DNA from: Aliivibrio fischeri ES114
GTDB lineage: Bacteria > Pseudomonadota > Gammaproteobacteria > Enterobacterales > Vibrionaceae
Reading direction: 5' to 3' (one strand)
Assembly: GCF_000011805.1 (NCBI RefSeq)
Contig: NC_006840.2
Length of the DNA stretch: 32,000 nt
Positions within the stretch are counted from its first letter, which is position 1; every line of letters starts with the position of its first letter. The notes below the pieces were generated by a model that searched no databases, was not told where the DNA came from, and was given only the letters and a program-made list of their open reading frames with translations. The translations under genes were made by a program, and so were the position numbers. Below, piece by piece: positions 5,961 through 29,984 of the stretch.

Positions 5961-6029
5961 AAGGCCGAATTTAGTTAATTCGACAGTTTGTATTCTTATT
6001 GTATGTTCAATTCAATGGAGCTAAAACGT

Positions 6030-7424
6030 ATGCCTCTTCATTCCAAAAACGCAGTCAGAGATGATCTTCTTGATGATATTTATTCATCAGCTGACCTTTC
6101 GTTATCCATGCCAAAATATAAAATGCCTGAACAAGAACATGACCCACGTCATGCCTACCAAGTCATTCATGATGAGCTCATGATGGATGGTAATTCTCGA
6201 CAGAACTTAGCAACGTTTTGCCAAACTTGGGTTGAAGATGAAGTCCATAAATTAATGGATGAATGTATCGATAAAAATATGATCGATAAAGATGAATACC
6301 CTCAAACTGCTGAATTAGAATCTCGCTGTGTGCATATGCTAGCGGATTTATGGAACTCTCCTGACGCAGAAAACACACTAGGTTGTTCCACTACAGGTTC
6401 AAGTGAAGCCGCTATGCTAGGTGGTATGGCATTAAAATGGGCTTGGCGAGAAAAAATGAAAAAACTTGGCAAACCAACAGATAAGCCAAATATGATCTGT
6501 GGTCCCGTTCAAGTATGTTGGCATAAATTTGCACGTTATTGGGATATTGAATTACGTGAGATCCCAATGGAAGGCGATCGCTTGATCATGACGCCTGAAG
6601 AAGTGATTAAACGTTGTGATGAAAATACCATTGGTGTTGTTCCAACACTGGGGGTGACTTTTACTTGTCAATATGAGCCTGTGAAAGCGGTACATGAAGC
6701 GCTAGATAAGTTACAAGAAGAGACGGGTTTAGATATTCCAATGCACATTGATGCGGCGAGTGGTGGTTTCTTAGCTCCGTTCTGTGATCCTGATTTAGAG
6801 TGGGACTTCCGTCTTCCTCGAGTTAAATCGATTAATGCATCAGGTCATAAATTTGGCCTAAGCCCACTAGGTGTGGGTTGGGTAATTTGGCGTGACGCAT
6901 CAGCCTTGCATGAAGATTTGATTTTTAATGTGAACTATTTAGGTGGCAATATGCCGACCTTTGCATTGAACTTCTCTCGCCCAGGTGGCCAAATTGTAGC
7001 GCAATACTACAATTTCCTACGTTTAGGAAAAGAAGGGTATCGTAAGATCCACCAAGCGTGTTATGACACTGCTGTTTATTTATCATCTGAAATTGAAAAA
7101 CTGGGTATGTTTGAAATTATCTATGATGGTAAAGGTGGTATTCCAGCAATGAGTTGGTCATTGAAGGAAGGAGTTGATCCTGGTTTTAATTTGTTTGACC
7201 TATCGGATCGAATTCGTTCTCGTGGTTGGCAAATTGCGGCTTATGCAATGCCACCAAAACGTGAAGATTTAGTCATCATGCGTATTTTAGTACGTCATGG
7301 ATTCAGTCGAGATCAAGCGGATTTATTGGTTGCGGACTTAAAACATTGCGTTGAGTTTTTTGCTAAGCATCCTATTTCCCATGGTAGTGATGAGTTGGAA
7401 TCATCAGGATTTAACCACGGCTAA
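6030..7424 (+). CDS. gadB: Glutamate decarboxylase (PLP-dependent, GadA/GadB type)
   Basis: Near-collinear with E. coli GadB as I recall it: [90 protein letters not shown] (PLP lysine), [21 protein letters not shown] chose the ATG at 6030 because GGAG lies 9 nt upstream. Confidence 0.92.
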
Positions 7425-7458
7425 TCCCTTTCGTCGTGATATAGACATTTTGCTTTTT

Positions 7459-7486
7459 AGATCCTCTATTGTTCTGTAGAGGATCT
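7459..7486 (+). terminator. Intercistronic hairpin (possible partial terminator or mRNA stabiliser) between gadB and the transporter gene
   Basis: Perfect 10-bp stem agatcctcta / tagaggatct with an 8-nt loop. It is followed by cttcttcc, which is only a weak T-tract. Confidence 0.35.
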
Positions 7487-7514
7487 CTTCTTCCTAAAAA
7501 TATAGGAAATAATT

Positions 7515-9392
7515 ATGAATATCGGTCAAATAGGTCGTCCATTTACTTGGGTTCGCTCCAAAGGTTGGGTTCAGTTATTTACTTTACTATGTGTTACTTT
7601 CTTCAGTCATTTGGCTTTGGCTGAATCATTAGAAAATCAAGCAACTCAAGATGCATCTAGTGTCTTTGGTTTTCTCTTTTCTTATATTGCACAAAATCCG
7701 TTTGTGTTTCTTTTCTTAAGCATCGCCATTGGTTATCCATTAGGTAAAGTAACAATAAAAGGGGTTAATTTAGGCCCAACAGCAGGCACCTTAGTGGTTG
7801 GTGTGGCTATTGCTTTACCTGCTTTTTCTATTTATGGATTACATATTAATGCACCGGGATTAGTCTCGGACATATTCTTGATGATGTTTATGTATGCAAT
7901 TGGTATGAAAGTTGGGCCGCAATTTTTCTCTGGTTTAGCTCGAGGCGGTTTAGACTTTGTAGTTATTGGGTTAATTGTTGTTTTTAGTAACTTTCTTATC
8001 GTGTTCTTTGGTTCTAAATTATTGGATTTAGCACCGGGTTATGCGGCTGGGATAATTTCAGGAAGTTACACAGTAACTGCTGTTATGGGCGTTGCTCAAT
8101 CTGCGATTAATTCAGGAGCCGTTAAAGCTCCTGCAGGTATGACACTTGATCAGATCAGTGCCAATATCGCTGCGGGCTATGCTATCAGTTACATTTTATC
8201 AAGTGTATTCATCATCTTACTTATTAAGTATCTGCCTGCTATGTTTGGAATTGATCCAGTAAAAGCAGGTAAAGACGCCGAGGCTGAATTTGGTGCTGGC
8301 GGGGATACAGAGGCGTTACCAAGTACCAATGGTTTCTCGAATTTAGGTGTGCTTCCTTTGGATATTCGTGCCTATCGTGTTGATCACCAAGAGTTGGTTG
8401 GTCAAGATGTTGAATCATTATTTCATCGTTACCCTCATGCTGCGATTCTTAAAGTTGTGCGTGGTGAGGATGTTTATGAAGCATCAGATAATCCAATACT
8501 TCAACTTGGCGATATTATTGGTATTCGTGGTGATTACCATGTCTTGATTGAAGGAGGAGAATCATCTGTAGGTATTGAGGTAGATGAACCGAGAGCACGT
8601 AATGTTGATATTGAAGTTGCGGATATTCACCTAGGTAAATCGGAATATACAGGTAAAACGATAGAAGATATCAGTAAAGAAGTTGGCTTTGGTATTTATA
8701 TGAAAGCTTTGTTTAGACAAGGGCATCAACTTCCTATTTTACCTCAAACCATTGTCGAAGTAGGCGATGTGATACGTGTGGCAGGGTCTGATTGGTGCGT
8801 TAAGCAAGCCGGTAAGAAACTGAACAGTAATCCAATTGTAGAGAGCACGCTAACGGAGACTTTTTACTTGGCACTTTCTTTATTGATTGGTTACGTTTGT
8901 GGTCACTTTAGCGTTACGTTAGGGGGGATCCCATTTGCTTTAGGCACATCTGCTGGTTGTATGTTGACAGGGATAATATTCTCGTTTTTACGTACTCGTA
9001 ATCCTGCTTTTGGTGGACCTATGAGTGAAGGGGCTCGTAGCTTCTTACAAGATATTGGTTTGAGTCTATTTGTTGCGGTATTAGCAGCAACTGTGGGCCC
9101 TAAAATATTAGCGTCTTTCCAAGGCATTGTTGTGATTAAAATTGCAGTGTTAGGGTTGGTTGCTGCTTTACTTCCTCCATTATTGGCGTGGATTTATGGT
9201 TTATACGTCAGAAAAATGAACCCTGCAATTCTGGCTGGTGCTTGTGCTGGTGGACGTAATAGCACACCTGCAATGAAAGGTGCTCAAGATGAATGCCAAA
9301 GCGATATGCCTGCAGTAGGCTACCCTGTTCCTTATGCATTAACATCAATGATTGTTCTTGTATTAGGTTATTTGGCGATGGTGCTGTATTAA
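7515..9392 (+). CDS. AAE (aspartate:alanine exchanger; AspT/YbjL/YidE) family transporter with two central TrkA-C/RCK_C-like domains
   Basis: Matches E. coli YbjL blocks as I recall them: IRAYRV...ELVG, GDIIGIRGDYH, GDVIRVAGSD, and the C-terminal GGRNSTPAMKGAQ...MPAVGYPVPYALTSMIV. There are two hydrophobic halves flanking a soluble middle. AGGAAA lies 6 nt before the ATG. Confidence 0.85.
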   Translation: MNIGQIGRPFTWVRSKGWVQLFTLLCVTFFSHLALAESLENQATQDASSVFGFLFSYIAQNPFVFLFLSIAIGYPLGKVTIKGVNLGPTAGTLVVGVAIALPAFSIYGLHINAPGLVSDIFLMMFMYAIGMKVGPQFFSGLARGGLDFVVIGLIVVFSNFLIVFFGSKLLDLAPGYAAGIISGSYTVTAVMGVAQSAINSGAVKAPAGMTLDQISANIAAGYAISYILSSVFIILLIKYLPAMFGIDPVKAGKDAEAEFGAGGDTEALPSTNGFSNLGVLPLDIRAYRVDHQELVGQDVESLFHRYPHAAILKVVRGEDVYEASDNPILQLGDIIGIRGDYHVLIEGGESSVGIEVDEPRARNVDIEVADIHLGKSEYTGKTIEDISKEVGFGIYMKALFRQGHQLPILPQTIVEVGDVIRVAGSDWCVKQAGKKLNSNPIVESTLTETFYLALSLLIGYVCGHFSVTLGGIPFALGTSAGCMLTGIIFSFLRTRNPAFGGPMSEGARSFLQDIGLSLFVAVLAATVGPKILASFQGIVVIKIAVLGLVAALLPPLLAWIYGLYVRKMNPAILAGACAGGRNSTPAMKGAQDECQSDMPAVGYPVPYALTSMIVLVLGYLAMVLY

Positions 9393-12101: not shown

Positions 12102-13580
12102 TTATTTCACTTCTTCAAAGTTTGGAAGCAAGGTTTTTGGTTCTTCATCAACAAAAGCTTTTTTCGGTGAGTACGCTCTAAAGTAAACAAACCAACCTTC
12201 TTTTTCGTTAGTTTGAACCCAATTTGCCTCAGCAACACCTTTAGGTTTCTTTGGAGAAAAGTGTAAGGTGATTGAGCCGTCTTTATTATAGACCGAACCT
12301 TTGATATTGGAGCCTACATCTGCACGACCTAAATCGTTTTCAATTATTGCTCTATTTTCAACATTATAAACGGTTATCGTCCAGAACAAATCAGCGTACG
12401 TATTTGGGTTTTTGATGGTTAATGTGTAGTGTTTACCACCATCTAAGCCGTGATCTTTTTCTCCAGAATAGTAATTATCTAGATATACTTGTCCCCAACC
12501 ACCATTGTCCATACCGTGCATGGCAATGTCATTGGTTACGGCTTCATAAAACCATGCTGCACGACCATCTAAATCCATGCCATTATTTCGGTCTTGGTTA
12601 GGTGTTGATGCGGTTGCTATTTCCCAAGGATTACCTTTTGGACCATATTCTGCATGATCAAGACGACCGGTTTTATTAAAATCGATATTTTTTGTCATAG
12701 CTTCACCAACGATAGCAGCCTCTTTTAATAAAGATTGCTGTTTTGGGGTTGGTATAAATGGTTTTCCTTTTTCAATGCCTAAAGGGCGTAGCATATCCAT
12801 CATCATACGATCACGTTCTTGTACTGGATTCGCTTGAATAGCTTGATTAACGACTTCCCAGAATTCCATTCCTCGTGGTTGTTTATGGTCAATCCCACGT
12901 TTTACATGATAAATTCCTTTGTTTGTTAATTGGTTACCATTTATATCCGTAATGCCTTTTTGAATGGAATTCATCATAGTTGAGCGTACTTTGGCATCTT
13001 TATTCATTAAACGCACACCAAAAAAGAAGTCATTAGTATCCATTGCAATTAATGTTGCTCCTTTTACTTTTGGTGCGACATCTCCAGCTTTGTAAATGAC
13101 ATATTTCCCAGGCTTAGTCATTTGTTCTTTACCAATTTGCCACATGTTATGAACGGCACCACGTAATTGCGTATCTGGAAGATTAATTACAATTGGTCCA
13201 TTATTTAAGTTCATATAACCAATTAAATAAGGTGTTGAAGTGTTATAAGTTAAGCCTCCTAATTTAGACTCGTAGCCTGCTTGGTAAACGAGTTGGCCAT
13301 TTTCTGTTCCCCAAGTTTGGTAGTGATCGTTTTTCCATTTATAGAAACTTACGATCGGTGTTGCCCAAATATATCCTTGTACTGCACGTTGATAATCCAA
13401 TTCATCAAATAATTTCTGTGATGTTTTGTTAGTTGGTACGCCATGCTCAAAGCCATTTTCAAAGGTGAGTTGGCCACTGCGTGTTTCTAGAGTTTCATAA
13501 CCTCCAGATGGAAGGTAATCATTAGCGAATGTAGTGAAACTTATTGTGCCTAGCATTAAAGCGATGAGTGTTTTTTTCAT
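12102..13580 (-). CDS. Secreted DUF1254/DUF1214 domain protein (paralog 2)
   Basis: Signal peptide MKKTLIALMLGTISFTTFA|ND. DUF1254-type block YQRAVQGYIWATPIVSF and DUF1214-type block LFWTITVYN...NWVQT..GWFVYFRAY are present. The size (492 aa) matches my memory of the V. parahaemolyticus VPA0735-type structural-genomics protein. Confidence 0.75.
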   Translation of the reverse strand: MKKTLIALMLGTISFTTFANDYLPSGGYETLETRSGQLTFENGFEHGVPTNKTSQKLFDELDYQRAVQGYIWATPIVSFYKWKNDHYQTWGTENGQLVYQAGYESKLGGLTYNTSTPYLIGYMNLNNGPIVINLPDTQLRGAVHNMWQIGKEQMTKPGKYVIYKAGDVAPKVKGATLIAMDTNDFFFGVRLMNKDAKVRSTMMNSIQKGITDINGNQLTNKGIYHVKRGIDHKQPRGMEFWEVVNQAIQANPVQERDRMMMDMLRPLGIEKGKPFIPTPKQQSLLKEAAIVGEAMTKNIDFNKTGRLDHAEYGPKGNPWEIATASTPNQDRNNGMDLDGRAAWFYEAVTNDIAMHGMDNGGWGQVYLDNYYSGEKDHGLDGGKHYTLTIKNPNTYADLFWTITVYNVENRAIIENDLGRADVGSNIKGSVYNKDGSITLHFSPKKPKGVAEANWVQTNEKEGWFVYFRAYSPKKAFVDEEPKTLLPNFEEVK

Positions 13581-13604
13581 GTGTTTATCCTATTGAACTG
13601 TTGG

Positions 13605-15203
13605 TTATTTCACGCAGTTAATTTTTTCAAATTCCCCAGGGACCCAAGAACCATCAAATAAACTTTGCTGAGGACCATAAAAACGGATCAAGGAGAACCA
13701 GCTGTCATTATCAAATTGCAACCAGTTATTTTTGGCTAATTGCGCATTCTCTGGCGCGGTTGGACCAAAGAATAATGTGACAGAGTCATCACTGTTTTTA
13801 ATTGGATTATCACGATCGCCAAGTGAAGGCCATTGATGATTTTCAACATTAACACCCGCAGCCGTTGCTGCATCATAAGCGGTGACCGACCAGAATAAGC
13901 TAGCTGGTACATCTGCAGGAATGTGTAAAGAGTAATTACAAGAGCCAATTAACGGATTGAGGTCTTTATCTTTATATGCACCAGCGTATTTAGCTCCAGC
14001 TCCTATTTTGGCGTTAATCATTCCTGAAGACATAGAATAATGGTTGGTGTACATATGAGTGATAGCATCGACATTGGTGTAGCCGGTTTTTATATTGTGA
14101 TAATAAGGGTCTGATAGCGCATGATATTGATTCCCTTTGTCAGTTAATGCGTGAGCAACCCACGATGGTGCTTCTTTCCAAAACCATGTATCACCAGTGG
14201 TTTTACTTGATTTCTCATCAAAGTTAAGGGCAATCTCTTTGCTAATTTTCCAACCAGTTTGAGCGGCTTTTGTTAGCATCTCTTTTTGCTTTTCAGTTGG
14301 TGTAAATTCAACGCCTTTGCTTATCCCAATTGCGGCCATGACACCATTCATATATGGATCAAACGTAGCCAACTCCATATTTTGAACGGCTCTGTTTAAT
14401 GTTTCATAGAATCGATAATCGTTATCCCAAATCGATTTAGAAGGAACATCAGAGACATTAAAGAATTCCATTGACTCAGCACTGCCATTTAGTGGATATA
14501 CTTTGATTTCTTTTACTCGATTAACTGCAGGCTCAAGGTTATTCATGTCTTTAAAGAAAGAGCGAAGGAATAAGAATACTTCAGAAGTATTTGATTCATA
14601 AATAAAGTATTTATCTGCTAGCTGTGCGTAATCTTCACGCTTTTTATTTGGCGGTAAAATAAGAAATTTCGCCGCTTTACCTTTGTCAGGACCAGCATTA
14701 CCAATATCACCTAAATATTGTCCACCCGGTTGGTTTTTATCTAATGGACCTCGTAATGGGTGGTGGTACATATCATCCATTAATGATTGTAAACCTGCGG
14801 GATGTTCTATAATTAAAGGACCTGTTTCTTTCATATCTAGCCAGCCCATTGCGTAGATAACATCTGAGTTTGGTGTGGTTATTAATGAATTGGGTTTTAA
14901 ACGATCTTGGTAAATGGCTATTTTATTATAGGCGGTACCATTCATTAGTTCTGCGTGACCTTCTTGCATCGCTTTCATATTTACAATAGGCAGAGCCCAT
15001 TGATATAGCATGGATGCACGTTGAAAATAGCTTTCATTTTGAAGAATTTTTTGACTGGTTTCTGTCGGAAATCCACCGTTCATTTCTAAGTTAGCCAATG
15101 TTGAATATCTATCTGACATAGAAGATACGGCATCAGGTGAACTGCTCGCAGATGCATTACACGTGATAGCGAAAATTGATATAGCAAGTAAGGTTCTTTT
15201 CAT
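13605..15203 (-). CDS. Secreted DUF1254/DUF1214 domain protein (paralog 1)
   Basis: Signal peptide MKRTLLAISIFAITCNASA|SS, starting from the ATG at 15203 (GGAG 6 nt upstream; the track's start at 15224 is TTG). Blocks YFQRASMLYQWALPIVN and LFWSVTAYD...NWLQF..SWFSLIRFY parallel the downstream paralog. The gap to that gene is 24 nt. Confidence 0.75.
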   Translation of the reverse strand: MKRTLLAISIFAITCNASASSSPDAVSSMSDRYSTLANLEMNGGFPTETSQKILQNESYFQRASMLYQWALPIVNMKAMQEGHAELMNGTAYNKIAIYQDRLKPNSLITTPNSDVIYAMGWLDMKETGPLIIEHPAGLQSLMDDMYHHPLRGPLDKNQPGGQYLGDIGNAGPDKGKAAKFLILPPNKKREDYAQLADKYFIYESNTSEVFLFLRSFFKDMNNLEPAVNRVKEIKVYPLNGSAESMEFFNVSDVPSKSIWDNDYRFYETLNRAVQNMELATFDPYMNGVMAAIGISKGVEFTPTEKQKEMLTKAAQTGWKISKEIALNFDEKSSKTTGDTWFWKEAPSWVAHALTDKGNQYHALSDPYYHNIKTGYTNVDAITHMYTNHYSMSSGMINAKIGAGAKYAGAYKDKDLNPLIGSCNYSLHIPADVPASLFWSVTAYDAATAAGVNVENHQWPSLGDRDNPIKNSDDSVTLFFGPTAPENAQLAKNNWLQFDNDSWFSLIRFYGPQQSLFDGSWVPGEFEKINCVK

Positions 15204-15367
15204 GTGTACTCCAATATAAGGCAAAGGTATTTGCTCAACTGAATTACATTGTTGTTTATTTTTGATAACCTAGATAATGAATTGAAGGGATATGAGATAT
15301 ATCATTTAGTCATTATTGGTGGCGTGATTCGTTTATGGTACTAATTTGGATAAGTAAGTAGGACAAA

Positions 15368-16306
15368 ATGAAGCATAAAATTCATCAGCTGGATCTTAAT
15401 TTACTCAAAGTGTTTACGGTTTTATTAGAAGTTCGTAATACCCGAAAGGCATCTGAACGTTTGTTTTTAAGCCAACCTGGTGTCAGTAGGGCACTTGCTC
15501 GATTAAGAGACTTCTTTGAAGATGAATTGTTTATACGCAGTCATTATGGCTTAACGCCAACCCCTAAGGCATTAGAGATTGGAGATAATATTGCGCCTGC
15601 AATGACTTTACTTTTTTCTGCTTTAGAACCATCAGATAAATTTGATAGTTCACAGTTAGAGGGAAGAATAAATATCGCTATGAATGGTTTTATTGCTCCG
15701 TCCATTGCTTCTAATTTGTGTGGCATTATTCTAGAAAAAGCACCAAATGTTGAAGTGGTATTTTCTAATTGGGACAGAGCAACGCCTGAAAATATTTTGC
15801 ATGATCAAATACAGTTAGGTTTAAATTATTTTCCATTAGAAATTTCAAAACAGCTTTCTCAGTCGGTACTGACCACCGATCGTTTTGTATTGATTGGACG
15901 TAAAGAACACCCTCTAATTACGGGTGAAGAAAGCTTTGAAAATGCAGCTCAATTAGATATTGCGACACTTGTTATCCCAAATTGGAATGAGCATAAAGCT
16001 TATGTGGTTAATTCTTTAAAATCATTAAATAAAGAATGTCGCATGAGGCTGAGAAGCAGCTACCTTGATGTCATCTTAAATTCAATACAACGAACGGATA
16101 TGCTTTTTCCATGCTCAGAATCATTAGCAAATACCTTAGGTAGTGACTTTCAGAAACTACTATTGCCAGATGATGTTATTCAACCGGGTGGAGAAATAGG
16201 GCTTGTTGTAGCGAGTAAAAATCGGAGAACTCCTTTAATTAAATGGTTAAAGGAGTGTACTCAAGAGGCGGCCGCTGAGATTAAAACTTATAATTTAAGC
16301 CAGTAG
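15368..16306 (+). CDS. LysR-family transcriptional regulator
   Basis: HTH reads LNLLKVFTVLLEVRNTRKASERLFLSQPGVSRALARLRD. It is divergent from the DUF1254/DUF1214 pair. TAGGA is present as an RBS. Confidence 0.85.
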   Translation: MKHKIHQLDLNLLKVFTVLLEVRNTRKASERLFLSQPGVSRALARLRDFFEDELFIRSHYGLTPTPKALEIGDNIAPAMTLLFSALEPSDKFDSSQLEGRINIAMNGFIAPSIASNLCGIILEKAPNVEVVFSNWDRATPENILHDQIQLGLNYFPLEISKQLSQSVLTTDRFVLIGRKEHPLITGEESFENAAQLDIATLVIPNWNEHKAYVVNSLKSLNKECRMRLRSSYLDVILNSIQRTDMLFPCSESLANTLGSDFQKLLLPDDVIQPGGEIGLVVASKNRRTPLIKWLKECTQEAAAEIKTYNLSQ

Positions 16307-17323: not shown

Positions 17324-18145
17324 TTATAAACTTTGTTTATATTGCTTTGGAGTAGCAGCAACAACACTTTTAAAATTGCGATGGAAGTGGCTTTGGTCTG
17401 TAAAACCAAGATCTGTCGCAATAGATGCAATGTTTTCCCCATTTTTTAATAAGGCCTTAGCTTTATTAATTCGCATTACAATTTGGTAAGCATGAGGTGT
17501 AATTCCGTATTGTTTTCTGAATGAGTGGATAAGGTAGAATTCACTTAATCCAGATACTTCAGCAATCTCAGAAATAGAAATATTCTTATCAAAGTTATCT
17601 GAAATATATTGATATGCACAATCGATCGCCTTTTTAGAAATGACATCAAGAGAAGGGTTGTTTGTATCTTTTAAAATCAATTCAGAAAAAAAGTTGATTG
17701 CTGTTTGTTCTACTTTTATTTTTGATTCATCTTCTATAAGAGTATGAGACAGAGATTGAAAACCTCTATAAATGAAAGGGCAATCAGTATGGGTGATTTG
17801 AAAGGGTCTGAATGTATTGTTGTTATCATTTAATATTTGAGATTGTAACTTTGCAATCCACTCTGGTTCTACGTAGAGCATTTTATAACTCCAATTGGTT
17901 CCTTTCTGTGGATTACAGGAGTGAACTTCTTCAGGGTTAACTATTACCGTAGAACCAGGGGATATCGTTTGTTTTTTATTTTGATTGAAATACTCACTAA
18001 TCCCACTATCCACGACACCAATTGAAAATTCTTGATGTGTATGTTTTTTATAGCAGGCGCTTGAATTACTTGAATAACGTAATTCAAACGGAAGAATTGA
18101 TGATCTTAAAAAGTGAGGATTTGAATTAGCCAACATAACGTCCAT
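17324..18145 (-). CDS. AraC-family transcriptional regulator (N-terminal cupin-like sensor plus C-terminal double HTH)
   Basis: The C-terminus reads ISISEIAEVSGLSEFYLIHSFRKQYGITPHAYQIVMRINKAKALL...IASIATDLGFTDQSHFHRNFK. It is the last gene of the operon, with its ATG 2 nt after the LysE stop. Confidence 0.85.
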   Translation of the reverse strand: MDVMLANSNPHFLRSSILPFELRYSSNSSACYKKHTHQEFSIGVVDSGISEYFNQNKKQTISPGSTVIVNPEEVHSCNPQKGTNWSYKMLYVEPEWIAKLQSQILNDNNNTFRPFQITHTDCPFIYRGFQSLSHTLIEDESKIKVEQTAINFFSELILKDTNNPSLDVISKKAIDCAYQYISDNFDKNISISEIAEVSGLSEFYLIHSFRKQYGITPHAYQIVMRINKAKALLKNGENIASIATDLGFTDQSHFHRNFKSVVAATPKQYKQSL

Positions 18146-18147
18146 TA

Positions 18148-18753
18148 TTATTTTGATATAAAGAATACATACACTACTGTTAGTGCGAGCAACCCTCCCA
18201 TAATACGATTAAATAACTTATAGTGGATAGGATGTTCGAGATACTTTCCAATGGTAAGGCCTAATAAAGCCCAAGTTGATATACAGCAGTAACATACGAT
18301 AAAAAATATCACACTAAATGCCCCGAGATCTTCGAGTGGAATCACACCGTTGCTAGAAAATACGGTTACCCCTGAAAGTGAAACAATCCAAGCTTTAGGG
18401 TTAAGCCATTGACACAAAAGGCCTTGGAACATAGTAGGAGCGTCGTTTTTCTTTGTTTCATCCTGTTCAGTTTTACTGCTTGTTGCAACCTTATAAGCCA
18501 AATAAAGTAAGAAAGCACTGCCAAGATAATTAAGTACTTGTGTTGCAGTATGTGAACCATCAAAGGCTTGTATCAATCCTAAACCTAAAATAATAAGAAT
18601 AGACACAAACCCAATAGTAGCCCCAAAAATATGTGGAATAGTCCTTACATAACCGTGATTTGCCCCAGTAATAGTTGCTAGAATATTTACAGGCCCAGGG
18701 GAGAGTGAAGTAACCAAGGCGAACATCGCCATAGCAAGAAATAAAGTCATCAT
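18148..18753 (-). CDS. LysE/RhtB-family amino-acid exporter
   Basis: 201 aa with about six TM segments. N-terminus reads FALVTSLSPGPVNILATITGANHGY, followed by QWLNPKAW; both are typical of the LysE family. Confidence 0.85.
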   Translation of the reverse strand: MMTLFLAMAMFALVTSLSPGPVNILATITGANHGYVRTIPHIFGATIGFVSILIILGLGLIQAFDGSHTATQVLNYLGSAFLLYLAYKVATSSKTEQDETKKNDAPTMFQGLLCQWLNPKAWIVSLSGVTVFSSNGVIPLEDLGAFSVIFFIVCYCCISTWALLGLTIGKYLEHPIHYKLFNRIMGGLLALTVVYVFFISK

Positions 18754-18759
18754 TTGTCC

Positions 18760-19401
18760 TTAAAATTCAGTGACCTCACCGGTTCCATCAATGAAACGGT
18801 GCTCTTGTAAATCAACAATTTTGTAGCGTTTTGCTTTGATTTTCCCTTCTTTACAATATCCTGCTTTTGCTTCCCAAAAGCCCGAGTTAAATTCGGTGGT
18901 GAAGTGTAATTCAGAAAGGCATTTAACCCCTTTGTAACGGTAAAGTGAAAAGTCGATTAGCCTAAGAGGGTATCCTTCTTCAAGGCTTAATGGCTCTCCA
19001 TCTACATCCCAAACCAACATCGCTCGATTTGTTATAGCTTGTGAATAAGACAGTGTCGAATCGTATTGTCCTTTATCTGTACCAAAGCTTAATTGCTTTA
19101 AAAAATGGCCAGTGTATTTGTTCGGATCGATGTCGAGATATTCCATTACATCAGCCAGTAGTACACCAGTCCACGTACGACGAATACTCCAATTACATAC
19201 GCACACAACACGGCGATTCTCAGTGATTGGCGCTATATTTTTAAGTTCATCTAATGTGATTTCTAACGGTTTACTTTCATTAGGTAAAAAGACTTTTAAT
19301 ACCTTGGGTGCATTTTCATGCGTTTCTTGTGGCCCTTCTTGATAATATCTTAGAGACGACGGTTTTTTCTCAATAAAAGGGGTCTTTTCAAATTGTTCCA
19401 T
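18760..19401 (-). CDS. Small molybdopterin-dependent oxidoreductase-fold protein (sulfite oxidase/YedY-like catalytic domain), cytoplasmic
   Basis: RRVVCVCNWSIRRTWTGVLLADVMEYL resembles the Moco-cysteine block C-x-x-WS....W.GV.L.D.L. GYPLRLIDFSLYRYKGVKCLSELHF resembles G.P.RL..P...G.K..K.L..I.F. No Tat or Sec signal is visible. GAGG is present as an RBS. Confidence 0.6.
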   Translation of the reverse strand: MEQFEKTPFIEKKPSSLRYYQEGPQETHENAPKVLKVFLPNESKPLEITLDELKNIAPITENRRVVCVCNWSIRRTWTGVLLADVMEYLDIDPNKYTGHFLKQLSFGTDKGQYDSTLSYSQAITNRAMLVWDVDGEPLSLEEGYPLRLIDFSLYRYKGVKCLSELHFTTEFNSGFWEAKAGYCKEGKIKAKRYKIVDLQEHRFIDGTGEVTEF

Positions 19402-19414
19402 ACAACCTCACAAC

Positions 19415-20173
19415 CTACTCTGTAATGTTTTTTACACAACGAAAACCAACAATATTATCTCTTACCGTTGGGGGATAATTATCTCTGCTGGTGCTGCGCA
19501 TATAATTTTCATCGTGTAAGCCTGAACCGCCTCTCACCACATGATCAAAAGAGATGTCTAAAATACAAAGTGGATCAACATGGTTATCATCCCATGCATA
19601 ATTCGGTAAATAATTATCTAAACACCACTCTGCAAGGTTTCCCCCCATGTCTATACAACCAAAAGGAGATCGATTTTGTGGATGAGCATCCCAGTCTGTT
19701 GAGCTTCGATTAAATTCAACTGGTTCACAATCGGGAGCGAAATTCGCGATATTTAAATCTGGCTCTGTATTTCCCCAAGGATACATACGGTTATCATTTC
19801 CTTTTGCCGCGTATTCCCACTGCGATTCAGTTGGAAGTTCTTTACCAACAAAACAAGCAAAAGCTTGAGCTTCATACCAACTGATCCCTGTGACTGGTTT
19901 TTTATCCCCATTCCAATTGGGATCATTCCAATATAAAGGTTCAGTAATATTGTGCTCTTGGATGAATTTGAATCCAGTTGTTGACCAATATCTAGGGTCT
20001 GAATAACCACCTTGCTCAATAAAAACACGGTAATCTTTATTTAATACTGGGTGTATATCCATAAAGAATGGAGAGAGTGAGATGGTTTTTATTGGTTGCT
20101 CATCAGAACTTAGAATCGACCCTCTTTGGTAAGGTTGACCTGAAATTAGTACCATATTATTCATTATACTCAT
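19415..20173 (-). CDS. FGE-sulfatase (SUMF1/EgtB/PvdO) fold protein, non-FGE subtype
   Basis: PVTGISWYEAQAFACFVGKELPTESQWEYAAKG, MYPWGN, GNLAEWCLD, VVRGGSG and IVGFRCVKN are present. The start overlaps the upstream stop (ATGA). Confidence 0.8.
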   Translation of the reverse strand: MSIMNNMVLISGQPYQRGSILSSDEQPIKTISLSPFFMDIHPVLNKDYRVFIEQGGYSDPRYWSTTGFKFIQEHNITEPLYWNDPNWNGDKKPVTGISWYEAQAFACFVGKELPTESQWEYAAKGNDNRMYPWGNTEPDLNIANFAPDCEPVEFNRSSTDWDAHPQNRSPFGCIDMGGNLAEWCLDNYLPNYAWDDNHVDPLCILDISFDHVVRGGSGLHDENYMRSTSRDNYPPTVRDNIVGFRCVKNITE

Positions 20174-20574
20174 CTTATTAACCCCAAGTTTCCCGTGTGT
20201 TTATTGATGATTTTTTTGGTGCCATAAATTGCGATACCAAGGTATTCAATATCTTCAGGTCTTGTTGCAGCAAGTTTGTCTGAATAGTCTTGGTAGTTTT
20301 TGGTTGTTTGAGCTACATTAGAAAAATCAACTAATGTGGCTTCTTCTTTTAAAGATGCTCTTATTTCTTTTATTTTATGAGAAGAGCTCGCCAATATAGG
20401 GATCGGAATCGATGTGATTCCAGTATGGATCTCCCCATTTTTATTGACGTTATCAGCACCAATCAGTTCGGGGTGCAATTTACCTAGCGATAATGTTAGA
20501 ACGGCCGCAGTATTCGCAATTAACCCTTGTGGTAGAGCTTTATCTATTACGAGTACGCATTTGTGGTTATCCAT
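20170..20574 (-). CDS. DUF2000-family protein (PTH2-like fold, function unknown)
   Basis: 134 aa. KCVLVIDKALPQGLIANTAAVLTLSLG....P.LIG.D....G..H.G and the C-terminal YGTKKIINKHTGNLGLI fit my memory of the DUF2000 pattern. The RBS GGAAAAGG lies inside the 3' end of the upstream gene. Confidence 0.55.
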   Translation of the reverse strand: MDNHKCVLVIDKALPQGLIANTAAVLTLSLGKLHPELIGADNVNKNGEIHTGITSIPIPILASSSHKIKEIRASLKEEATLVDFSNVAQTTKNYQDYSDKLAATRPEDIEYLGIAIYGTKKIINKHTGNLGLIR

Positions 20575-21206
20575 TTAGCCTTTTCCTTTTGACGTTGTTG
20601 GTTTTTTATAAAAAGTGCCCATGTCATATTTATTGTTAGGGGCGCTGAAATTTTCTTTAATTGGTATAGTGCGATTGAATCCGAGTTAACAAGACAGCAA
20701 TCAGAATGTCCTTCAGCAACATGAATGGCAGCTTGACTAGTTGACGTTGAAAGACGGATGTTAAAGCGAGCGTTTGATAAATCGATAACGCTTGGATTGG
20801 CTGTTTTTATCAAGTCATCTAAACGAGAAAGTGGAGCATGATGTGTATCTATATTGATGATTTCGTTATTGTTCACTTTTTGCTGTAGTGCATTTATGTC
20901 TTTACAGCAAAGATGATAAGCAGGGGGAGAAAAAAAGAAGGAACCAGAAAGTAATGTCTTTGGGTTCATATAGAAAAAGTCAGTTTTTTGATATGCATTT
21001 GCAACTAATAAGGCTGCGCTATCGGATAACTCAACATAGTCTGATGCCTCTTCAAACGTATCGAAAAGCAGTATTTTTAATGGGCGATTGATAAGAGTCG
21101 AAAAATAGTTTGCGGCGGCTTCACTGCTTGAGCTCTTAGGGCCAAGCGTAGCAACCGTGCTGATATCGTTATTATCTCTAAGCCAAAAATAATTTTGATC
21201 CATCAT
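20547..21206 (-). CDS. BacA/AerD/SalX-like prephenate decarboxylase (PDT-fold, no ACT domain)
   Basis: Block-by-block similarity to B. subtilis BacA as I recall it: ATLGPKSSSSEAAANYF vs NTLGPEGTSSEYAAKNF; FDTFEEA vs HDTFESC; NAYQKTDFFYMNP vs HAYDGIKHFYMRP; STSTSQAAIHVAEGHSDCCLVN vs NSTSAAAKRVKDGLSDIALTN; INMTWALF vs IPMSWSLF. At 219 aa it lacks the ACT regulatory domain of PheA. Confidence 0.7.
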   Translation of the reverse strand: MMDQNYFWLRDNNDISTVATLGPKSSSSEAAANYFSTLINRPLKILLFDTFEEASDYVELSDSAALLVANAYQKTDFFYMNPKTLLSGSFFFSPPAYHLCCKDINALQQKVNNNEIINIDTHHAPLSRLDDLIKTANPSVIDLSNARFNIRLSTSTSQAAIHVAEGHSDCCLVNSDSIALYQLKKISAPLTINMTWALFIKNQQRQKEKAKWITTNAYS

Positions 21207-21390
21207 TTTTTACTAATCCATTTGTAATTTTTATTAGATTAATTCAATGAGATAGAGTGATATTGTACAAAATTGCTTTTTGAATCTAATTAATAAATAA
21301 CTTTTAAAGCGGAAGATAAAGGCAGATACTTCGACTCTTGTTAAGCACTGTTGTCTATAAACAGTGTTCATCGTTATAAAAGAGAAAAAC

Positions 21391-26734: not shown

Positions 26735-27070
26735 GGGATTCTCATTTATAAATTGGGAAGGAAAAGTAGGGGGCATTATAAGAAAGCTGCTTATAGAGTC
26801 TAAATGGAAAACTCACATTTGTTTTTTGTTTGTTTTTTTATTTGCTTTAACTAAAGTTGTTGAAGGTTTTTTTGTCTCAACTTGATGTTTAATAAGCATT
26901 TATTTTACTAAATAGTGATATGGCTCTAAGAATTATTGATTTGTCAGTTTTTTTAGGTAGACTCCAGAGTTTTATAAATGAAACCAATGCCTCTTATTTG
27001 AAGATGTATTTTTTGTGTCATTTATATGAATCAATTTTCTTCTACTTATATTTTTCACTATAAGGCTTAA

Positions 27071-27928
27071 ATGCATAAAATAATTATTGCTAATTTAGTG
27101 TTAGAACCTGAAAGCAGAACGTTAACAAACCAGTTTGGTCACAAAGTAATGTTAAGACCATTACCTTATGAAGTGTTTAGATTATTGCTTGATCAGCAAG
27201 GAAAAAGTGTATCTCGTGATCAACTATTTAATGTTTGCTGGGAAGGTATGGTTGTTACCGATCAGGCATTAACGAATGTTATTTCGAATTTAAGACGTAA
27301 TTTAGTGCAATTAAAAGCAGAGAACGTAACGATTAAAACAGTAAGTAAAATCGGTTACTTACTTGCTATAGAGCAGCCAATCACAATCGTTGAAAATACG
27401 AATGAAATTGCACCTTTAAAAAAACAATCAGAACCATCATCTGTTGCCAATAAGATAAAGAAAAAAGAAGCGTTTAATAGAAAAACAGCTGATGCAATAC
27501 TTAAACAATTATTGACCAAACCTTCTGTTAAATCAGTAAGTTGTTGTTTTTTCCTAGTTGCGATGATTATTGTTGGTGTCGTGTACCAAAGGTACATATC
27601 AATACCGCACTTTTTAGTGAGCAATAATTATGAGCACTTTAGTGTCAATAACACGGATTTTTATTTGCTAAATAAGACAAAAGAAAAAACAGATATAGAG
27701 AAGATCAAATCTGGTATTGAATCTTTGAATTTGGCTGAATGTAATGCAAATGTTTACATTAGGATGTATGACTCAGTTTATGAAGATGATACGTACTCCT
27801 TAAAAGGATACATAGAAGCAAAAAATAATAATAGAAATGGAAACTATTCGTTAAGTCAATTTTCATATGATGATTTGCCAAACATCATTGGTGAAGCATT
27901 AAAAAGGGCGAAATTAGTATGCGATTAG
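27071..27928 (+). CDS. ToxR/CadC-like bitopic membrane transcriptional activator (OmpR/PhoB wHTH - TM - periplasmic domain)
   Basis: N-terminal trans_reg_C-type block reads LEPESRTLTN..GHKVMLRPLPYEVFRLLLDQQGKSVSRDQLFNVCWEG.VVTDQALTNVISNLRRNL......IKTVSKIGYLL. A single TM segment VSCCFFLVAMIIVGVVY is followed by a tail of about 110 aa containing exactly two Cys. Confidence 0.8.
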   Translation: MHKIIIANLVLEPESRTLTNQFGHKVMLRPLPYEVFRLLLDQQGKSVSRDQLFNVCWEGMVVTDQALTNVISNLRRNLVQLKAENVTIKTVSKIGYLLAIEQPITIVENTNEIAPLKKQSEPSSVANKIKKKEAFNRKTADAILKQLLTKPSVKSVSCCFFLVAMIIVGVVYQRYISIPHFLVSNNYEHFSVNNTDFYLLNKTKEKTDIEKIKSGIESLNLAECNANVYIRMYDSVYEDDTYSLKGYIEAKNNNRNGNYSLSQFSYDDLPNIIGEALKRAKLVCD

Positions 27929-28398
27929 TTAATTTGGTTTTACTGTTTATACTAGTGGGATTGGCATTTTATAAATTTAGCTTTAATGATACTGAGCTTG
28001 CTGGTTCTCGTTGGGCATGTAATGAATTATCTAAAAATTTCATTTCAGAACCGTATAAAAAATACCAAGAAATAACAGAGAAAGATGTACTCTATTTTGC
28101 TTCATCATCTAATTTAACTATTTTTCAAACCGGTGAGTTAGTTTTCAAAAATGGAGAGCGTCATAAGTATGAAGTTATTATTGATGCGAGCTATAAGGTT
28201 AAAAAGAATAAAATATCACTAAAGTATACAAATATAGACTGGCATTATAAACCCGCTAAATCTCCAGTTTTTGTTCAAGATTTGGACTCATTAAAAGGTT
28301 TTGAAACAGATCTTAACTATATTATTAATGACGAACAATTGTATTTTTATAATCGAAAAAAACATGAAAATACAAACTATCTTTGTTTCTCTTTATAA
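27919..28398 (+). CDS. ToxS/VtrC-like partner protein (N-terminal membrane anchor plus periplasmic domain)
   Basis: The ATG overlaps the regulator's 3' end by 10 nt. N-terminal anchor MRLVNLVLLFILVGLAFY. At 159 aa it is close in size to ToxS (about 170 aa) and VtrC (about 160 aa). The call rests on architecture and synteny; sequence similarity is weak. Confidence 0.45.
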   Translation: MRLVNLVLLFILVGLAFYKFSFNDTELAGSRWACNELSKNFISEPYKKYQEITEKDVLYFASSSNLTIFQTGELVFKNGERHKYEVIIDASYKVKKNKISLKYTNIDWHYKPAKSPVFVQDLDSLKGFETDLNYIINDEQLYFYNRKKHENTNYLCFSL

Positions 28399-28408
28399 AG
28401 TAACAATT

Positions 28409-28456
28409 CACTAAATTTGGTTATTTGTTAAATAAAATAACCAAATTAGTGTTTGA
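28409..28456 (+). terminator. AT-rich hairpin after the ToxS-like gene (possible terminator)
   Basis: cactaaatttggttatt (28409-25) / aataaccaaattagtg (28436-51), with a one-base bulge, followed by tttgatttg. Confidence 0.4.
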
Positions 28457-28670
28457 TTTGTATTCTCTTTGTGAAATAAAACTGCTTTAATTACAGTGAT
28501 TTATCTGTTTTCGCATTAACTTAAATTAATTTGAGTGATGTGTGATCTAACACTATTTATCAAATCAATAACCCGATTATTATTCGCTCGATTTTGGAGT
28601 TTAAATTGCAGACGAATAACGTAGCAATTTAAAAATTTATTATATAAAAGCTATCATCAGGGAGATTGAT

Positions 28671-29984
28671 ATGTTTTTAATTGAGTTTTTAATCGTACTA
28701 GTATGTATTTTAATCGGTGCTCGAATTGGTGGTATCGGTTTAGGTGTTATGGGTGGTATTGGTTTAGCCATACTAAGTTTTGTTTTTGGTTTACAACCGA
28801 CAAGTCCGCCTATTGATGTAATGTTGATGATCATGGCTGTAGTAGCTGCTGCTGCTGCAATGCAAGCTGCTGGTGGTCTTGAATATTTAATCAAAATTGC
28901 TTCAAATATTCTTCGTAAAAATCCTCGTCATATTACTTTTATTGCCCCTTTAGTGACGTACATGTTTACTTTCTTGGCAGGTACTGGACACGTAGCTTAT
29001 TCAGTTTTACCTGTTATTGCAGAAGTAAGCCGTCGTAGTGGTATTCGCCCAGAACGTCCACTTGGAATGGCAGTAATTGCTTCTCAATTTGCAATTGTAG
29101 CGAGTCCAATTGCTGCTGCGGTTGTCGCTGTTGTTGCCTTTTTAGAGCCACAAGGAATTACTTTAGCTGATGTATTAATGGTAACGATTCCGGGCACATT
29201 CTGTGGTTTAGCACTAGCTTGCGTTATTGTTAACAAGATTGGTAAAGAGCTAAAAGACGATCCTGAATACCAACGTCGTATGCAAGATCCAACGTTCCGT
29301 AAGGAAATGGAACAAGAAGTACAAGTAGAAGAAATTGAAATTAAACCAGAAGCTAAAAAAGCGGTAGGACTATTCCTATTTGGTGCATTCGCCGTGGTTA
29401 TTATGGGTGCATTCCCTGCATTACGTCCTAACTTCAATGGATCTCCAATGGGCATGGCTCATACTATTGAAATCGTAATGTTAGCAATGGCAGCTTTAAT
29501 TATTTTACTATGTAAGCCTGATGGAAATGAAATAACACAAGGTTCAGTTTTCCATGCAGGTATGCGTGCAATCGTAGCTATATTTGGTATTGCATGGTTA
29601 GGTGATACGTTTATCGCAGGTCATGACATCATGGTAAAAGAAGCGGTATCTGGCTTAGTTGAAGTTGCTCCATGGACATTTGCTTTTGCATTGTTTGGTT
29701 TATCTGTAATGGTAAACAGTCAAGGCGCAACAACGGCAGTATTAGTACCTGTAGGTATTGCATTAGGCTTACCACCAGAAGTGATTATCGCAACATTTGT
29801 TGCTGTAAATGGTTACTTCTTTATTCCTAACTATGGTCCGATTATCGCATCTATTGATTTTGACCGTACAGGCACAACTAAGATTGGTAAATACATTTTT
29901 AACCACAGCTTTATGCTTCCTGGTCTATTAAGTATGATCTTCAGTATCGTGTTCGGATTTATTTTTGCAAGCATGGTTTTATAA
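28671..29984 (+). CDS. dcuB: Anaerobic C4-dicarboxylate transporter, DcuA/DcuB family (closest to DcuB by motif)
   Basis: [110 protein letters not shown] and [24 protein letters not shown] are close to E. coli DcuB. Confidence 0.9.

Follow-up and report, generated by a model that had tools for sequence, protein, structure and literature searches.

A conserved gene cassette around a BacA-family protein in Aliivibrio fischeri ES114, with a possible role in the biosynthesis and export of a prephenate-derived metabolite

Bacilysin, aeruginosins, salinosporamide and dihydrophenylalanine are products of a small, pharmacologically rich metabolic branch that begins with prephenate decarboxylases; BacA, AerD, SalX and Plu3043 belong to the routes to bacilysin/anticapsin, the Choi unit of aeruginosides, the cyclohexenylalanine of salinosporamide, and 2,5-dihydrophenylalanine. 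The first enzyme of these pathways is a stand-alone protein of about 200 amino acids (aa), of the same sequence family and the same prephenate dehydratase (PDT) fold as a 219-aa protein encoded in a 32,000-nucleotide stretch of the Aliivibrio fischeri ES114 genome (contig NC_006840.2), which was analysed as a whole and is called the window below. The gene of this protein heads a compact cassette of six genes in 3.9 kb with its own regulator and exporter (genes 1 to 6; Table 1). We consider it rather probable that the cassette is a conserved biosynthesis-and-export system for a prephenate-derived small molecule, most likely an amino-acid-like antimetabolite or building block.

Compared with the BacA-type pathways, the operon lacks the cupin isomerase (BacB/AerE), the SDR (BacC/BacG/AerF), the BacF/IlvE aminotransferase and the BacD ligase; searches with Pfam and NCBIfam upheld the absence of these usual partners that an earlier note on this DNA had claimed from the letters. 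No cupin or SDR was seen among the accessory genes at the selected loci that were checked either. Instead, DUF2000, an FGE-fold protein and a small molybdenum cofactor (Moco) protein form an invariant trio. The enzyme family of the first step is known; for the partner set and the presumed chemistry no description was found in the literature searched. DUF2000, PF09391, Atu0240 and this combination of genes were not mentioned there, with subscription literature outside the scope, and the papers on suomilide made no mention of the cassette genes.

The six genes and their products

The earlier note had described the 219-aa protein as BacA-like, and profile comparisons bear this out. It missed the cut-offs of the Pfam PDT model (PF00800; 16.4 bits versus 25.2) and of the NCBIfam PDT model (PRK11898; 15.1 versus 219) by far. 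No ACT domain was matched with Pfam, and the open reading frame (ORF) ends past the catalytic domain. Close homologues formed 12 clusters among 5.8 billion proteins, and the family profile of gene 1 matched 481 cluster representatives among 1.84 billion at E<=1e-3. Among the 150 profile matches listed, nearly all were stand-alone proteins of 190-240 aa, and the longer, ubiquitous PheA-type dehydratases were essentially missing. The profile matched P0066, named 'bacilysin biosynthesis protein BacA' in NCBI/UniRef, with E=1.5e-35; P0066 is 64% identical to what we take to be the BacA sequence of B. subtilis. The AlphaFold2 (AF2) model of the gene 1 protein (pLDDT 85.6) was best matched by the PDT domains of the prephenate dehydratases 6vh5 and 3mwb (E 6e-11, TM 0.58, about 200 columns). 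The homologues share the invariant motifs TLGP..SS, LLVANAY, THHAP.S, STS..A and M.W..F, and the clade of the gene 1 protein is only about 30-40% identical to other family members. In a neighbour-joining (NJ) tree, every decarboxylase homologue linked to the partner genes fell into one clade of 61 leaves with authentic BacA outside; the cassette-type decarboxylase stands in a clade of its own. At the level of sequence and predicted fold, the 219-aa protein is confirmed as a BacA-family member on a PDT fold and not a PheA-type dehydratase.

Fusions of other kinds were seen elsewhere in the family. P0085 is a natural fusion of a BacA-like domain with an EamA/DMT transporter, and P0098 and P0119 carry long N-terminal extensions that resemble isopropylmalate/homocitrate synthases (HMGL-type) by eye. 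These three proteins hint at further branches of the prephenate-decarboxylase family.

The DUF2000 match of gene 2 covered model positions 1-133 of 133 (Pfam, 151 bits). In a Foldseek search with its AF2 model (pLDDT 95.2), the best match was 2GAX (2gax_A; Atu0240) with a TM of 0.89, followed by archaeal and human PTH2 with a TM of about 0.55. The gene 2 protein thus has its fold in common with DUF2000/Atu0240 and with the PTH2 hydrolases, but differs from them in being genetically locked, and sometimes fused, to a BacA-like enzyme: the DUF2000 gene was always adjacent to the BacA-like gene or within about 3 kb of it. We know of no function for any DUF2000 protein, and going by the predicted model a function is not transferable to gene 2 from the 2GAX and PTH2 matches. 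The PTH2-like fold, and a truncated ValRS-like paralogue in high-GC variants, raised the idea that DUF2000 might be a self-protection factor that works by trans-editing or deacylation. An hhalign comparison of DUF2000 with what we take to be the human PTRH2 sequence aligned a C-terminal motif only (probability 6%).

In gene 3, PF03781 extended over residues 6-248 of 252 (165 bits). The C-terminal FGE-like (C-type-lectin-like) domain of the sulfoxide and selenoxide synthases EgtB, OvoA, SenA and OvsA is common to gene 3, and its best NCBIfam and PDB sequence matches were to EgtB (2.6e-38) and OvsA (1.2e-21). Unlike this group, the gene 3 protein lacks the N-terminal DinB domain and its three-His iron site: the NCBIfam EgtB model was matched at positions 194-412 only (132 bits versus a cut-off of 360), no DinB domain with the iron-binding histidines was found in the 252 aa, and a 'TYR' segment reads 'TSR' in gene 3 in the alignment with OvsA. 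The fold is also that of FGE (SUMF1) over the full length, with PDB matches to bacterial and human FGE at 1e-15 to 1e-19. The gene 3 protein differs from FGE in having no Cys pair, in being cytoplasmic and in having no sulfatase nearby. No internal cysteine occurs in its RGGS...GFRC segment (RGGSGLHDENYMRSTSRDNYPPTVRDNIVGFRC), which in FGE holds both Cu(I)-binding catalytic cysteines. Residues C149, C173, C184, C246, H211 and H220 were invariant in 18 orthologues, and His220 appears to sit at the approximate position of the first FGE catalytic Cys. Gene 3 was therefore rejected both as an EgtB-type sulfoxide synthase, for want of a DinB domain, and as a true FGE, for want of the Cys pair. The label 'redox-type fold', which had been given to this protein from the letters, turned out to be an assumption, as the protein is without the known catalytic apparatus of FGE and EgtB.

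Gene 4 scored 74 bits against PF00174 (Oxidored_molyb; cut-off 24), and the profile of its clade matched SorA (4e-15) and YedY (2.4e-14). Its Cys67 (VVCVCNWS) aligns with the Cys of YedY (1xdq, RMRCVEAWS), and its LRY(18) aligns with the VRY of SorA; the Mo-ligand Cys67 was invariant in 17 orthologues. The gene 4 protein thus has the Moco-binding domain, the Mo-ligand Cys and the neighbouring Arg-Tyr motif in common with YedY/MsrP and SorA, whereas it has only 213 aa, shows no evident signal peptide and lacks a dimerisation domain as well as a YedZ or haem partner. Its partner is the FGE-fold protein, to which it is sometimes fused. Its NCBIfam scores were far under every equivalog cut-off. 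Three features, namely the YedY-like Moco protein, the likeness of the LysE protein to a cysteine exporter and a Cys/Met-type pyridoxal phosphate (PLP) enzyme in one variant locus (L053), raised the idea that a 'sulfoxide synthase + sulfoxide reductase' pair makes a thioether. With the iron site missing and no conserved thiol-donor gene, this idea stands as speculation only.

PF01810 matched gene 5 at residues 14-191 (70.9 bits). The nearest NCBIfam models were a cysteine/O-acetylserine exporter (5e-16) and a homoserine lactone exporter (1e-13), both far below cut-off; no NCBIfam equivalog cut-off that would assign an export substrate was reached. The LysE gene lay directly 3' of the Moco gene in most loci carrying LysE or AraC, including all loci assigned to proteobacterial genomes. 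Gene 6 has an N-terminal AraC_binding (cupin) domain and a C-terminal double helix-turn-helix (HTH), and additionally matched the HTH model PF00165 (2e-18). Cassettes of Gamma-, Beta- and Alphaproteobacteria and of one cyanobacterium have an orthologous AraC gene linked to them, the orientation of which varies.

Table 1. Features of the cassette in the window.
Feature	Coordinates	Strand	Evidence
Gene 1, stand-alone BacA-family protein (prephenate-decarboxylase-like), 219 aa, PDT/PBP-II fold, no ACT domain	20547..21206	-	ORF, family profile, AF2/structure match
Gene 2, DUF2000, 134 aa, PTH2-like fold, obligate partner of gene 1	20170..20574	-	PF09391 2e-44, full length
Gene 3, stand-alone FGE-sulfatase-fold protein, 252 aa	19415..20173	-	PF03781 3e-48
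Gene 4, small cytoplasmic sulfite-oxidase-family molybdopterin-binding protein, 213 aa	18760..19401	-	PF00174 1e-20
Gene 5, LysE/RhtB-family amino-acid-type exporter, 201 aa	18148..18753	-	PF01810 1e-19
Gene 6, AraC-family regulator with cupin-type ligand-binding domain, 273 aa	17324..18145	-	AraC_binding PF02311 3e-16, HTH_18 PF12833 3e-20
Intergenic region between the divergent DUF2127 gene and the cassette, 157 bp, AT-rich; presumed promoter and AraC operator region	21207..21363		inferred

The ORF listing of the window contained all six ORFs intact on the minus strand between 17324 and 21206. Gene 1 overlaps gene 2 by 28 nt, and gene 2 overlaps gene 3 by 4 nt (ATGA); the junctions that follow, up to gene 6, are gaps of 13, 6 and 2 nt. 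The packing and all five junction sizes agree with what had been noted, as does the domain order PDT-fold/DUF2000/FGE-sulfatase/Moco/LysE/AraC, for which Pfam gave the PDT match below threshold only. The earlier note had also claimed a ribosome binding site for each gene. In the sequence, Shine-Dalgarno-like motifs stand ahead of four of the five internal genes, namely DUF2000 (AAGGAAAAGG), FGE-like (GGGG), Moco (GTGAGGT) and LysE (TAAGGA), and the claim does not extend to araC, whose start region (AAAATAATAATG) contains no clear motif. In a consensus scan of the operon, internal sites resembling promoters or terminators were fewer than in shuffled sequence, and none was significant. The layout is compatible with a single transcription unit for the six genes. 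In comparison with Aliivibrio sp. S4MY1, dN/dS was 0.05-0.08 for the four genes with unsaturated dS (dS was saturated for the other two), which indicates that the cassette genes are under purifying selection.

Recurrence of the cassette and its variant clusters

More than 45 loci had the order BacA-like/DUF2000/FGE-like/Moco, spread over Gamma-, Beta- and Alphaproteobacteria, Bacillaceae, cyanobacteria and high-GC contigs. The decarboxylase profile led to 17 genome loci (three from Aliivibrio, seven from Xenorhabdus species, three from cyanobacteria and four from Bacillaceae), and the four-gene order was present in every one that extended far enough. It was also found in V. mangrovi, Anaerobacillus, Rhodoferax, Lichenibacterium and on a 244-kb plasmid of Vibrio halioticoli, and the source names of DUF2000 and FGE homologues added Yersinia enterocolitica, V. 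mimicus, V. alginolyticus, Pseudoalteromonas, Streptomyces marincola and others. Since the identical order recurs in dozens of unrelated genomes, the arrangement is not due to chance. Across phyla, the DUF2000, FGE-like and Moco proteins are about 45-55% identical, and the decarboxylases about 30-38%.

A reciprocal test was made in metagenomes with the Moco clade as anchor, counting the 20 loci that extend 2.4 kb or more upstream. BacA-like, DUF2000 and FGE-like genes were all present in 19 of them, and the Moco gene was always directly downstream of the FGE-like gene. None of 40 loci of distant Moco relatives (24-32% identity) contained any of the partners, and the linkage is therefore specific. 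Conservation of the gene neighbourhood, which the earlier note had put forward for checking, accordingly holds in Vibrionaceae and far beyond.

Fusions occurred within the core. P0104 (locus L023) joins the BacA-like and DUF2000 domains and is followed by FGE and Moco genes. Full-length FGE::Moco fusions were found at L042:1267-2640 and L034:2047-3423, with both Pfam domains confirmed in L042. These two kinds of fusion therefore suggest that the core consists of two functional pairs. P0207, another candidate for an FGE::Moco fusion, was rejected as truncated or chimeric, being without the FGE C-terminus and the Moco Cys motif.

The genes accompanying the core differed by lineage. Proteobacterial loci had AraC and LysE genes with no other linked genes, and Bacillaceae had a divergent MocR regulator and an APC permease, with nothing else conserved. 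In high-GC contigs, the core was found with a TrmB regulator and an EamA or MFS transporter, and with a truncated ValRS-like paralogue in L052 and L053. Cyanobacterial loci included AraC in one case, methyltransferases in L004 and L016, and the A-T-TE terminus of a nonribosomal peptide synthetase (NRPS) with an ABC exporter next to the core in L017. In a further group (L024, L050 and L058), in which no regulator or transporter was identified, chorismate mutase, DAHP synthase, aminotransferase, GNAT and an NRPS condensation domain were present. The DAHP synthase of this group is bona fide (493 bits versus a cut-off of 343), and the chorismate mutase gene adjoins the decarboxylase gene in L024 and L058. 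This group is the most telling one. Such genes are as expected for a prephenate-derived amino-acid building block, and the addition of chorismate mutase, DAHP synthase, aminotransferases, GNAT, NRPS genes and transporters (LysE, EamA, APC, MFS or ABC) in the variants indicates biosynthesis from chorismate plus export. Every lineage has a transporter of one of these kinds together with the core. The amino-acid-like biosynthetic route from prephenate, proposed earlier from the A. fischeri letters, gains support from these variant clusters.

The ValRS-like class-I aminoacyl-tRNA synthetase paralogue of the high-GC variants has 666 aa, stands directly after the Moco gene (L052:1771-3771, L053:4108-6111) and matches model positions 23-562 of 860 (338 bits versus a cut-off of 704). 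Downstream of it, L053 carries an aminotransferase, the Cys/Met-type PLP enzyme and an amidohydrolase. The paralogue could serve self-resistance or tRNA-dependent tailoring, which is of interest next to the PTH2-like DUF2000.

The cassette is mobile and has probably spread horizontally.

A few observations on individual loci are added here. The cassette of V. halioticoli lies on the plasmid at L107 (AP024877.1 196043-212792), and that of V. mangrovi (L001:12462-16633) adjoins Imm49/DUF637 toxin-immunity genes. The ORFs flanking L030:6704-10419 were resolvase-like and large Tn3-type transposase-like, as read from N-terminal sequence only. The BacA-like gene was split or frameshifted in Lichenibacterium and in X. 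khoisanae (L026:8960-9610; L015:8001-8653), as were the Moco gene at L023:9749-10385 and FGE/Moco at L061:5814-6590, which reflects either decay in the lineage or sequencing error.

A proposed pathway and its alternatives

In the pathway that we propose, the BacA-family protein would take prephenate from primary metabolism, and its decarboxylation there, probably non-aromatising, would yield a cyclohexadienol keto acid. Homology and context suggest this step, for which the chorismate mutase and DAHP synthase of variant clusters are indirect support. With low confidence, DUF2000 may work with the decarboxylase and handle or isomerise its labile product, taking the place of the cupin BacB/AerE in the known pathways, or may have a protective hydrolase role. 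The FGE-fold protein and the YedY-like Moco protein would act as one two-part enzyme that carries out a redox or oxygen-atom-transfer step on the intermediate. A housekeeping aminotransferase might then turn the keto acid into an amino acid, a step for which variant clusters encode a dedicated enzyme. Judged by the transporter families, the product would be exported by LysE, or by EamA, APC, MFS or ABC transporters in other lineages, and the AraC-type regulator would control the operon. A more far-reaching version is doubtful: the FGE-fold protein, which has invariant Cys and His residues of its own, and the Moco protein would form a hitherto unrecognised two-part, sometimes fused, molybdoenzyme that, with the BacA-clade decarboxylase and DUF2000, performs new chemistry on a cyclohexadienyl intermediate, giving a widespread exported antimetabolite amino acid that spans squid-symbiotic Aliivibrio, insect-pathogenic Xenorhabdus, Bacillaceae and cyanobacteria.

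Several points weigh against the proposed pathway. The NJ tree that sets the decarboxylase clade apart is without support values, and the non-aromatising course of the decarboxylation cannot be read from the sequence of the 219-aa protein. There is no recognisable catalytic metal site in the FGE-like protein. To our knowledge, sulfite-oxidase-family Moco enzymes transfer oxygen atoms at S or N, not at carbon, and no obvious S- or N-oxide substrate arises from prephenate. The six-gene proteobacterial form has no aminotransferase, and its exported product could be the keto acid or another compound. The two pairs of the core can occur apart, because L053 has FGE-Moco without BacA-like or DUF2000 genes and L005 has BacA-like and DUF2000 genes without FGE-Moco. 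Further, the companions of the core in Bacillaceae are MocR and a BcaP-like APC permease, a pattern that is also typical of uptake and catabolism.

In a rival reading, the cassette would serve the uptake, catabolism or detoxification of a cyclohexadienyl or aromatic amino-acid-like compound from outside the cell; the BacA-like enzyme would decarboxylate a degradation intermediate, and AraC or MocR would be substrate-responsive activators. Regulators of the cupin-type AraC and MocR families often control catabolic operons, and the permease paired with the Bacillaceae core is closest to the branched-chain amino acid importer BcaP (7.7e-73, below cut-off). However, LysE/RhtB and EamA are exporter families, no ring-cleavage or beta-oxidation-type genes were linked, and the DAHP synthase, chorismate mutase and NRPS modules of the variants would supply or consume a biosynthetic product. 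Because of the prephenate-supply genes of the L024/L050/L058 group and the NRPS adjacency, biosynthesis from chorismate is indicated rather than catabolism, which we regard as improbable. Within a biosynthetic reading, the enzyme might use arogenate, 4-amino-4-deoxyprephenate or another cyclohexadienyl carboxylate, so that the product would not be a simple prephenate derivative. The position of the clade apart from authentic BacA in the NJ tree and the low identity to other family members would fit this, and a substrate that is already aminated would explain the missing aminotransferase of the six-gene form; yet chorismate mutase, the source of prephenate, adjoins the decarboxylase gene in two loci, and no aminodeoxychorismate-type genes were seen in any locus, which leaves another substrate unlikely. 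It is quite improbable that the 219-aa protein is an aromatising dehydratase-type enzyme minus ACT whose ordinary aromatic product, a modified phenylpyruvate or phenylalanine derivative, is altered by the FGE-like/Moco pair. The fold is that of PDT domains, and a conserved Thr/Ser in M(T/S)W appears to correspond to the catalytic Thr in the 'TRF' motif of PDT, but the sequence affinity is to the BacA family and not to PheA, and all characterised BacA-family members are reportedly non-aromatising (Mahlstedt et al. 2010, cited in PMC10157211). Catabolism, a non-prephenate substrate and an aromatising enzyme are all less well supported than biosynthesis and export of a prephenate-derived product.

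As such a system, the cassette would be a further branch of the prephenate-decarboxylase pathways, phylogenetically much wider and with entirely different downstream enzymes. If true, the pathway would give DUF2000 its first function, add a new role to those of the FGE fold and bring a sulfite-oxidase-family molybdoenzyme into secondary metabolism. As an exported amino-acid antimetabolite, the product could be of importance in symbiosis or competition, and NRPS assembly lines may draw on it in some clusters from cyanobacteria and other metagenomic sources. The compactness of the cassette and the tractable hosts (Aliivibrio fischeri, Xenorhabdus and Bacillaceae) make heterologous expression and metabolomics straightforward.

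Chromosomal setting and minor observations

In the window, the cassette is flanked by unrelated chromosomal genes, encoding DUF2127, TetR, two glutathione S-transferases (GSTs), a DUF2860 outer-membrane protein, LysR, two DUF1254/DUF1214 proteins and BrnQ. The same two neighbours, DUF2127 and DUF2860, also enclose the cassette in other Aliivibrio species. A consensus scan of the intergenic region upstream of gene 1 found no sigma-70 consensus; activator-dependent promoters are commonly without one.

The window is 99% identical to A. fischeri strain emors.2.1 (L006). In that strain, about 1.1 kb separates DUF2127 from the cassette, compared with 157 bp in the window, and LysR lies about 1.8 kb from DUF2860, compared with an overlap of the two in the window. 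These differences in spacing are strain-specific insertions. In ES114, the LysR (+) and DUF2860 (-) ORFs are convergent, and their 3' ends overlap by 26 nt (16281-16306). Each of two tandem paralogous genes at 12102-15224 (-) codes for a DUF1254+DUF1214 protein (492 and 539 aa).

The G+C content falls to 0.30 at 27001-29000, compared with about 0.37 elsewhere in the window; this stretch spans the gene of a Trans_reg_C winged-helix regulator (285 aa) and an overlapping 159-aa ORF without a Pfam match. Finally, a gene pair at 5988-9392 (+), first for a group II PLP-dependent decarboxylase (478 aa) and then for an Asp-Al_Ex/TrkA_C transporter (625 aa), resembles an amino-acid decarboxylation/antiport module.

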